From Eledone cirrhosa (lineage: Eukaryota), in assembly GCA_964016885.1 (NCBI GenBank), contig OZ024743.1:188480001-188544000 (forward strand): 64,000 nucleotides of DNA. Direction: 5' to 3'. The notes under the pieces are model-generated. The model worked only from the letters and a program-made list of their open reading frames with translations, did not search any database and was not told the DNA's origin. Of the stretch, positions 57,515 through 58,594 are shown piece after piece. The stretch's first letter is position 1, and each line of letters begins with the position of its first letter. A program made the translations under genes and the position numbers.

Positions 57515-58594
57515 TCCCCTAGTCTATGATAGATTTGGCGGACTCCGCCCTTTATAGCAGTTGGCTTAGACCCCGGATACTTGCCCCCTTTTTCCGACCG
57601 CTCCCACTATTCTCTGTGCCCTCTATATTTCTTAGTGGCATTTATGCCTTATTTTTTCGTTTCAGTATTTCTTGCTTCGCTTTTCTTCTGGGCGGGGTGG
57701 ATTCTGAATTTATTTCTCCGTATTCTACCTTTATTTCGTACGAACTTTCATGTAGCTTGTTTTAGATCTTTTAGAGTTAGCATTAGTATACATTTTTCTC
57801 GGGACTCAGAATTATTATCTCGTACAAGTTCACTTTGCTGCACTGGGTCGTTGCTGGCCCGGGATGGAAACATTTATTGTTTATTTCGTGGTAGTCTCTT
57901 TAGTATTTTGGCCCCTTTTGTTGACCCGTCACCGTATCATTTACGTACTTATACCTCTTAAAAGGGTCCTTGCCTATACCGTCCCACCTAGTTCTTTTAC
58001 TTATTTCGTTATTTCTTTATTTATTTATTTATTTACTTCTTTCTTTCTTTCTTTATTTTATTCTAGCCTAACAATAGCCTGAGACCTAGGTCGTAGAATT
58101 TAATTTACTTTACTTTTTTCTTTACACTTATTTGCTTTTCTTCACTCTCAGTATTTTTTTTTCTTTCCTATATATTTCTACCCCCCATTGTTCTACCTAC
58201 CGTTCCGACTTCCTCCCCCTCCCCCTCCCCTGTATCTTCTTTGACCTCATGCCCAGCTGTAGCTGGCACTACCAACGCTTGATTGGGTCTACTCCACCCC
58301 TCCCCTCTTTCTCCTACTGGCAGGTTTAGCCACCATCTCCCCTACTAATTTGCAACCACAGAATTACTACTGATTTTTGACAATCACTTTGACCATATAT
58401 GGAATTACCCCTTGAGAAGATCGGCTATTTAAATACCAGGATAAATTTTCATTTAGTCCAGAATTAGCCGTCGAAACGGCTTGAGCTCAGCTGTCGGGGT
58501 CTTACTGGTTCCTATTACCCACTCTACTACCTCAAGTACTGAGTACTTTGGTGCGTTATGGTCCACCTGGTTCCTTACCACATTTCCTTCGTTA
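57515..58594 (+). mobile_element. Long P1 Penelope-like 3' UTR/pLTR copy
   Basis: T-rich ~1.1-kb segment between (TA)n tracts, ending in the P1 tail and holding the only complete P1 ribozyme. Confidence 0.7.
58401..58513 (+). ncRNA. Extended type I hammerhead ribozyme with U3-A8 core
   Basis: ggaa-tt-acccc TTGAGAA ga-t-cggcta...tagccg-tc GAAA cggct-tgagctc-agctg TC ggggt-cttactgg-ttcc; predicted GUC cleavage after 58495. Confidence 0.75.

Follow-up and report, generated by a model that had tools for sequence, protein, structure and literature searches.

A conserved type I hammerhead anatomy with a U3-A8 core near the 3' end of a Penelope-like element family in Eledone cirrhosa

The window analysed here, a 64,000-nt stretch of the Eledone cirrhosa genome (assembly GCA_964016885.1, contig OZ024743.1, positions 188,480,001 to 188,544,000 of the forward strand), contains at 58401-58512 a sequence laid out like a hammerhead ribozyme, with a core that reads TTGAGAA instead of CTGANGA. 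The original prediction took it for an active, full-size ribozyme of a Penelope-like element (PLE). The locus raises two questions: is this a genuine hammerhead, and does the element that carries it need the cut?

Anatomy of the motif and of its host element

We find real, conserved type I hammerhead anatomy at 58401-58512 (+ strand, as are all features of the focal element described here), with three helices arranged around the core and the open end at stem I. Every part that had been predicted (the stems, the TTGAGAA core and the GUC triplet) was located where it had been placed. The 5' strand of stem I together with U3 (58412) occupies 58401-58412, and the 3' strand with the internal loop and TTCC occupies 58496-58512. 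Stem I proper pairs ACCCC (58407-58411) with GGGGT (58496-58500) and is extended, beyond a 2x8 internal loop, by GGAA (58401-58404) paired with TTCC (58509-58512). The 5' half of the catalytic core, TTGAGAA (58412-58418; U3 U4 G5 A6 G7 A8 A9), fits the form (C/U)UGAN(G/A)A ... GAAA ... UH with a Watson-Crick pair between positions 3 and 8, which in the window copy is U3-A8. Stem II (58419-58472) carries a 37-nt loop with an inner hairpin; its strands, GATCGGCTA (58419-58427) and TAGCCGTC (58465-58472), form the G10.1-C11.1 pair, an A-U pair, a bulged U and then 6 bp. The last segment (58473-58495) holds GAAA (58473-58476), stem III and the GUC triplet, with cleavage predicted after C58495 (C17). 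As proposed, stem III has 6 bp (including A15.1-U16.1 and one G.U), but loop III is the 7-nt TGAGCTC rather than GAGCTC; the whole stem forms an 18-nt near-palindrome with a single additional bulged T.

With a stem III of 5-6 bp, the motif stands apart from minimal PLE hammerheads, in which helix III is absent or 1-2 bp long and which can act only as dimers. The contrast first drawn with such minimal forms holds for stem III, but non-minimal hammerheads have already been described for fungal, protist, plant and Hydra-clade PLEs (PMC4209133, PMC8557442); in PMC4209133, the variants with a larger helix III come from fungal and protist PLEs, and action as a dimer and circularisation are both proposed there.

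The hammerhead is the minimum free energy (MFE) fold of 58390-58525, yet it is not more stable than shuffled sequences (z 0.25), and folding energy alone is therefore uninformative. A relaxed type I descriptor, composed after the motif had already been seen, gave a single match in the window, and 200 resampled windows of 64 kb yielded none. An Rfam scan of the window stretch returned no hammerhead match at E <= 1, in line with the expectation that searches would miss the motif. The non-canonical core accounts for this only in part: at E <= 10, three decayed natural C3-G8 copies went unmatched, as did one old U3-A8 copy, so the core is not the sole reason why such searches fail. The long loop II probably matters too, and the miss probably reflects the scope of the Rfam models.

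The motif sits near the end of a 1,077-nt copy (57516-58592) lying between two (TA)n tracts, which is 5'-truncated, lacks an ORF and consists of 3' UTR, hammerhead and tail. Over 1,086 nt this copy is 98.3% identical to an ORF-bearing sister unit (L200), whose intact ORF encodes 719 aa. The L200 protein has the motifs RWR, DKT, YRDD, CNCPDRSIC (CxCx5C), AYIG and CKH and lacks GxKF/Y; the marks of the Hydra clade given in Craig et al. (2021, PMC8557442) are an RWK motif, DKT, a CxCx5C linker and no GxKF/Y. These motifs correspond to a single ORF with reverse transcriptase (RT) plus, at its C-terminus, an endonuclease (EN) of GIY-YIG type, and the protein, compared by eye, is collinear with Hydra-1_Obim in the supplement of that paper. 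A Pfam scan of the L200 ORF matched no family, so the EN assignment rests on motifs. The family also shows insertion into (TA)n and tandem or inverted pLTRs with an optional tail. Judged by its protein motifs and (TA)n structure, we assign the focal element to the Hydra clade, as a young, high-copy PLE. The original attribution of the hammerhead to a PLE is upheld by the motifs of the element and by its position near the PLE 3' end.

The tail (58513-58592) ends in CTTCGT/TA, and its pattern, which leaves out copies with C at its first position, has 28,948 matches. In tandem units the tail continues into the 5' UTR and the ORF, with the ATG 231 nt past the equivalent of A+1. TTCC/TA (58509-58512) is also the short 3' end of inverted arms, and a typical insert consists, head to head, of a short arm ending in TTCC/TA and a long arm with the tail. 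Because the window copy has neither an ORF nor an upstream element promoter, its whole ribozyme would be transcribed only through host read-through. A second fragment of the family (54666-55609), 92.6% identical to L200, comprises the 3' half of the hammerhead, the tail, the 5' UTR and the N-terminus of the ORF (RWR, DKT). Five more mini-inserts or fragments of the family (3273-3418, 4950-5107, 8311-8524, 54619-54671 and 55637-55765) contain only the 3' half of the hammerhead; the one at 3273 begins AGTCC after a G. At another locus (L415-L417, G000:C1632:29514-29771), tandem units of ~54 nt consist of the hammerhead 3' half from AGTCC onwards, a satellite-like derivative.

Other repeats share the window. 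A second PLE family (18997-22974), Hydra-like by eye and with long inverted arms, has a 442-aa RT-EN fragment (20056-21384) and two hammerheads with a canonical core (22890, +; 19081, -), in which stem II has 7 bp and loop II is long; its pattern matches 1,192 times across the genome, and most of these matches include the complete ribozyme. A perfect 192-nt inverted repeat (8712-9104) bears a small canonical-core hammerhead-like motif in each arm (8969, +; 8847, -) and is probably a third PLE family. Further CUGANGA...GAAA candidates occur at 27322 (-) and 56436 (+), the latter within long inverted repeats (55862-56649). Broken reverse-transcriptase ORFs at 51617-54312 and 29452-30543 are presumably fragments of RTE-type LINEs, and at 15802-16206 a 48-nt tandem array is embedded in a dispersed, SINE-like repeat, to which sequences at 26812, 30562, 42584 and 54344 are related.

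Conservation of the core and history of the 3-8 pair

A pattern for the 5' half of the motif matched 7,225 times in the 3.0-Gb genome, against 0 matches for a reversed-pattern control. With a stricter stem I pattern, U3-A8 was present in 4,243 exact copies genome-wide and is thus the family norm, and 1,511 copies have an unpaired C3.A8, which leaves these relatives without the 3-8 Watson-Crick pair. A base other than A at position 8 occurs in 83 sporadic copies, 9 of which are C3-G8 by eye; position 7 takes G, A, T or C. The U3-A8 core itself is confirmed. The proposal that it is a compensatory variant fared differently within the family: a C3-G8 ancestral subfamily was sought in the focal family and none was found, the most divergent subfamily recovered being already U3-A8, so there is no U3-A8/C3-G8 covariation inside the family. 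The implied novelty of U3-A8 also falls away, since this pair has been published both for natural hammerheads, with activity in vitro described (Perreault 2011, PMC3088659), and for the Cercyon PLEs of Schistosoma, with ~1,300 matches (Cervera 2014, PMC4209133).

We compared majority sequences of seven subfamilies, drawn from 27 hand-picked rows. All 12 essential core positions (U4, G5, A6, A9, G10.1, C11.1, G12-A15.1, U16.1 and C17) are invariant across the seven majorities, and N7 varies. This includes the seven essential positions of the 3' core half, although their conservation may have causes other than catalysis, since that half also lies close to the promoter and forms terminal sequence. 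Upstream of the likely start site described below, 1 of 16 core and stem positions varies, versus 17 of 25 in loop II (Fisher p 1e-4). The G10.1-C11.1 pair is present in 27/27 rows and A15.1-U16.1 in 26/27.

The expectation that copies would conserve the core and show covarying stems was confirmed for the essential core and for stem II, but not for stems I and III, which are mostly invariant. In stem II three pairs have changed on both sides, for example from G-C to A-U in the oldest subfamily (L418-type, U3-A8), where this stem has 10 bp; stem II cells are paired in 87.9% of cases, against 28-49% in slid controls. Because these changes are inherited within subfamilies, they represent few events rather than many. 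Stem I varies at 0/10 positions between the majorities and shows no two-sided change, and stem III shows one, in a single row. In six copies (L015, L023, L046, L061, L062 and L085) an additional C separates stem I from U3; the pairing ACCTC/GAGGT in L046 suggests a true one-base insertion ahead of the core.

Two trees, of 85 and 75 copies, both midpoint-rooted and with subfamily labels given by simple rules that leave a few mislabels, place the oldest U3-A8 copies first, followed by a small U3.G8 group, older U3-A8, C3.A8 and finally young U3-A8. Median divergence along this ladder is 14% for the oldest U3-A8 copies, 6% and then 3% for C3.A8, and 0.8% for the subfamily of the window copy. An AU test on a core-masked alignment, from which 5 long or stray rows had been removed, rejected the 24 C3 copies as one clade (p 0.0003). 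Since the single-clade constraint is rejected, the amplifying lineage appears to have moved from U-A into the C.A state and later to have returned to U-A, unless this order is an effect of recombination. The family multiplied in the C3.A8 state, to at least 1,511 copies.

Like the hammerheads of Cercyon PLEs from S. mansoni (PMC4209133), the sequence is a U3-A8, type I motif in a PLE terminal repeat, with a stem II of 7-8 bp, a stem I of 4-5 bp and a palindromic helix III region. It differs from the minimal Cercyon motifs in its 5-6-bp stem III within an 18-nt near-palindrome, its 37-nt loop II with an inner hairpin and its GGAA/UUCC extension of stem I, and it belongs to a different PLE clade. 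With the Hydra-clade hammerheads of Craig et al. (2021, PMC8557442, File S2) it shares a location close to the 3' end of an element that targets (TA)n and the presence of stem III, alongside RWK/DKT/CxCx5C-type protein motifs. All 26 Hydra rows of that file, however, are C3-G8, with a stem III of 3-4 bp and a loop II of at most 10 nt; the focal core and size are therefore new for the clade as listed there. By eye, both motif and protein differ from Hydra-1_oBim (PMC8557442).

Ends of copies, junction traces and competing folds

Most copies of the family begin inside the ribozyme. Among 100 tail-bearing copies (the first 100 tail matches, all from the first 25 Mb of contig C1; all end samples come from the first 75 Mb of one contig), 56 start at 58451-58462, with a peak of 14 at A58455 in loop II, the dominant 5' end. 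The other 44 comprise 10 with a whole hammerhead, 2 starting at 58438-58440 and 32 starting further 3'. A58455 sits in TTTAGT or TTCAGT, which we take to resemble the initiator consensus. A G occupies position -1 in 13 of 48 junctions, against 2 at -2 and 1 at -3. In a separate sample of 49 non-T junctions the -1 base is G in 21, C in 26 and A in 2, and many of these G could have been templated by the partner arm; element sequence can explain 35/49, and 9 of the 14 that it leaves unexplained end in G (p 0.017 versus one third). A set of 100 non-T junctions read by eye gave 46 G, 47 C and 7 A. An untemplated extra G is the signature of a reverse-transcribed cap, and we consider 58455 a likely capped transcription start. 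Such a start in loop II is not a general Hydra-clade trait, being ruled out as such by the second PLE family in the window, in which ~95 of 100 copies keep the entire hammerhead and no loop II pile-up is seen (by eye). Among four sequencing runs of unrecorded kind, X1 and X4 have a roughly tenfold step in depth near 58441-58477, and X1 shows T>C at 58412 in about a quarter of its depth; these four runs may be the source material and are not counted as support.

Traces of cleavage are faint. In the unbiased sample, 4/100 starts fall at 58495-58497, which rules out hammerhead cleavage as the main source of 5' ends. A sample enriched for late starts has 14/70 at these positions (p 0.005 versus uniform), but the excess at the cut site is weak, because the peaks at 58491 (7) and 58506 (6) are about as high as that at 58496 (7), and microhomology with the inverted arm can explain several of the cut-site starts. 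Direct tandem junctions number 18 genome-wide, at 15 independent loci; of the 15, 3 stop precisely at C17 and another 2 lie within one base of it. One of the three (L405) has a complete hammerhead ending at C17, then four extra bases ending in G, then A+1. With only 18 direct junctions matching the exact pattern in the genome, jumping from cap to cut end is ruled out as the main route.

The fold has a close competitor. Stems II and III have CGGCT/AGCCG in common, which allows a decoy hairpin (AGCCGT-CGAA-ACGGCT, 58466-58481) that would hide GAAA. For the window copy, the predicted shares of hammerhead and decoy are 0.68 and 0.24; for two C3.A8 copies they are 0.03/0.85 and 0.00/0.98. Predictions for eight other U3-A8 copies are mixed, with the hammerhead at 0.73-0.89 in four and the decoy at 0.58 and 0.64 in two. 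The decoy lies within ~1 kcal/mol of the hammerhead, which is inside the error of the folding model. RNA 58455-58592 alone is predicted to adopt the decoy. Cofolding predicts a gain of 16.5 kcal/mol for the dimer and, for a cut 3' end, pairing with the 5' end that would place the second GUC in full core geometry. In these models a decoy of nearly equal energy, together with the palindromic stem III, suggests cleavage that is slow and helped by dimer formation or by protein. Given the long stem II, the canonical loop-bulge tertiary contact between stems I and II is doubtful.

The ribozyme in the life of the element

Experiments on the Poseidon element PAc of Anolis carolinensis offer a guide: its hammerhead needs protein and is dispensable for insertion in vitro (Frangieh 2024, PMC11167929). 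Like PAc, the focal element appears to have its hammerhead upstream of two internal RT starts that define a tail, and uncut RNA as main template (PMC11167929); the two-ended arms of its inserts fit internal RT initiation at two sites, as shown for PAc. PAc differs in having a minimal C3-G8 motif that overlaps the start codon (PMC11167929), whereas here the ATG lies 231 nt past the likely start, the tail is ~80 nt long and the majority of copies have their start within the ribozyme. A transcript with its 5' end in loop II would have the strand order of the type II permutation (Perreault 2011, PMC3088659), but known type II hammerheads are compact, bacterial or archaeal, and have a pseudoknot (PMC3088659), whereas the focal halves would flank an RNA of ~3 kb.

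On balance we lean towards a ribozyme that cuts at C58495 to trim read-through RNA, either slowly or with assistance, and that is beneficial to the element without being required for each insertion. Help could come from pairing through the palindromic stem III or from the element's own protein. Capped transcription would begin at A58455 in loop II, so that the 5' end of the RNA would hold only the 3' (substrate) half of the hammerhead, which would fold into the decoy hairpin and mostly stay uncut. The complete ribozyme would arise only where a transcript reads through the 3' repeat, and its cut would produce a terminal redundancy of 41 nt (58455-58495). Reverse transcription would have an internal start, like the one demonstrated for another PLE, at 58512 or 58592. 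Most cDNAs would stop at the cap and yield the tens of thousands of inverted mini-inserts of 58-138 nt, and a minority would pass the whole hammerhead into the 3' UTR via a template jump, a circle or tandem read-through; the window copy would be an example of cDNA continued into the 3' UTR. A bolder proposal, which we advance only tentatively and think rather unlikely, is that of a promoter-split ribozyme. The transcript would have the substrate half at its 5' end and the catalytic half at its 3' end, and the ends of one RNA would assemble a long-range hammerhead through stems I and II and the palindromic stem III. This would set a retrovirus-like 41-nt terminal redundancy or circularise the RNA; the mini-inserts would represent 'strong-stop' cDNAs that had integrated, and the passage of the core from U-A through C.A to U-A would record tuning of the cleavage rate in a live lineage.

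Other readings place catalysis differently. The motif could be a fully active, self-sufficient monomer that cuts efficiently whenever transcribed: it is the MFE fold, its predicted share is high in the window copy and four other U3-A8 copies, stem III runs to 6 bp, activity in vitro has been reported for U3-A8 (Perreault 2011, PMC3088659), and a hammerhead from a fungal PLE, whose helix III is large, cleaves as a monomer (Cervera 2014, PMC4209133). We judge this unlikely, given that stem II would, from established structure, be too long for the usual contact between loop II and stem I, that the nearby decoy dominates in two U3-A8 and two C3.A8 copies, that copies with sequence 3' of the cut site are the rule and that a C3.A8 lineage has amplified. 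At the other extreme, catalysis could be vestigial and the fold kept for protein binding, as promoter or for terminal recognition. Passage of the 3-8 pair through U.G and C.A states in amplifying subfamilies would suit this, as would the preponderance of inserted templates uncut at their 5' copy, the hammerhead mutants that leave PAc insertion unaffected in vitro (Frangieh 2024, PMC11167929) and the Naiad elements, which thrive without canonical hammerheads (Craig 2021, PMC8557442). Yet U4, G5, A6, A9 and G10.1, upstream of the start, stay invariant while N7 and loop II drift, the lineage went back to U3-A8 and weak junction traces lie at C17, and we hold a purely structural role to be improbable.

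The start site itself could be misread. If the 58455 pile-up marked a place where RT stalls or folds back, a reading that overlaps the others, the ribozyme would not be split. Starts are indeed spread across 58451-58462, and most junctions are fold-backs onto the inverted arm, which accounts for the -1 base in the 35/49 noted above. What makes this quite unlikely is the single-base peak at the A of TTTAGT/TTCAGT, the excess of G exactly at -1 and its absence at -2 to -4, a stop that falls in an AU-rich loop beyond the strong stems, and the lack of any pile-up in the second PLE family, whose loop II is similarly long. That the likeness to a hammerhead is due to chance would agree with the z score of 0.25 and the missing Rfam match, but is vanishingly improbable in view of the empty resampled windows, the pattern of core conservation among subfamilies and a position where Hydra-clade elements carry hammerheads (PMC8557442); the 7,225 versus 0 pattern matches, the compensation in stem II and the invariant core rule chance resemblance out.

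The U3-A8 core is already known and by itself ordinary. Our literature searches, with most subscription papers, Repbase and Dfam outside their coverage, met with neither an amplified C3.A8 lineage nor a start site inside a hammerhead. The role of the hammerhead in endonuclease-bearing PLEs is called unclear in Craig 2021 (PMC8557442) and Frangieh 2024 (PMC11167929). The focal family offers a natural test of whether PLEs need the hammerhead cut, and it supplies the reagents: subfamilies with U-A, U.G and C.A at positions 3 and 8, intact ORFs such as that of L200, tens of thousands of insertion ends and a sharply mapped likely start site within the ribozyme. Should the C3.A8 form prove inactive, the element would be able to spread with no cut; should this form cleave as a dimer or with the aid of protein, the family would provide a case of broken-core rescue in a natural setting.
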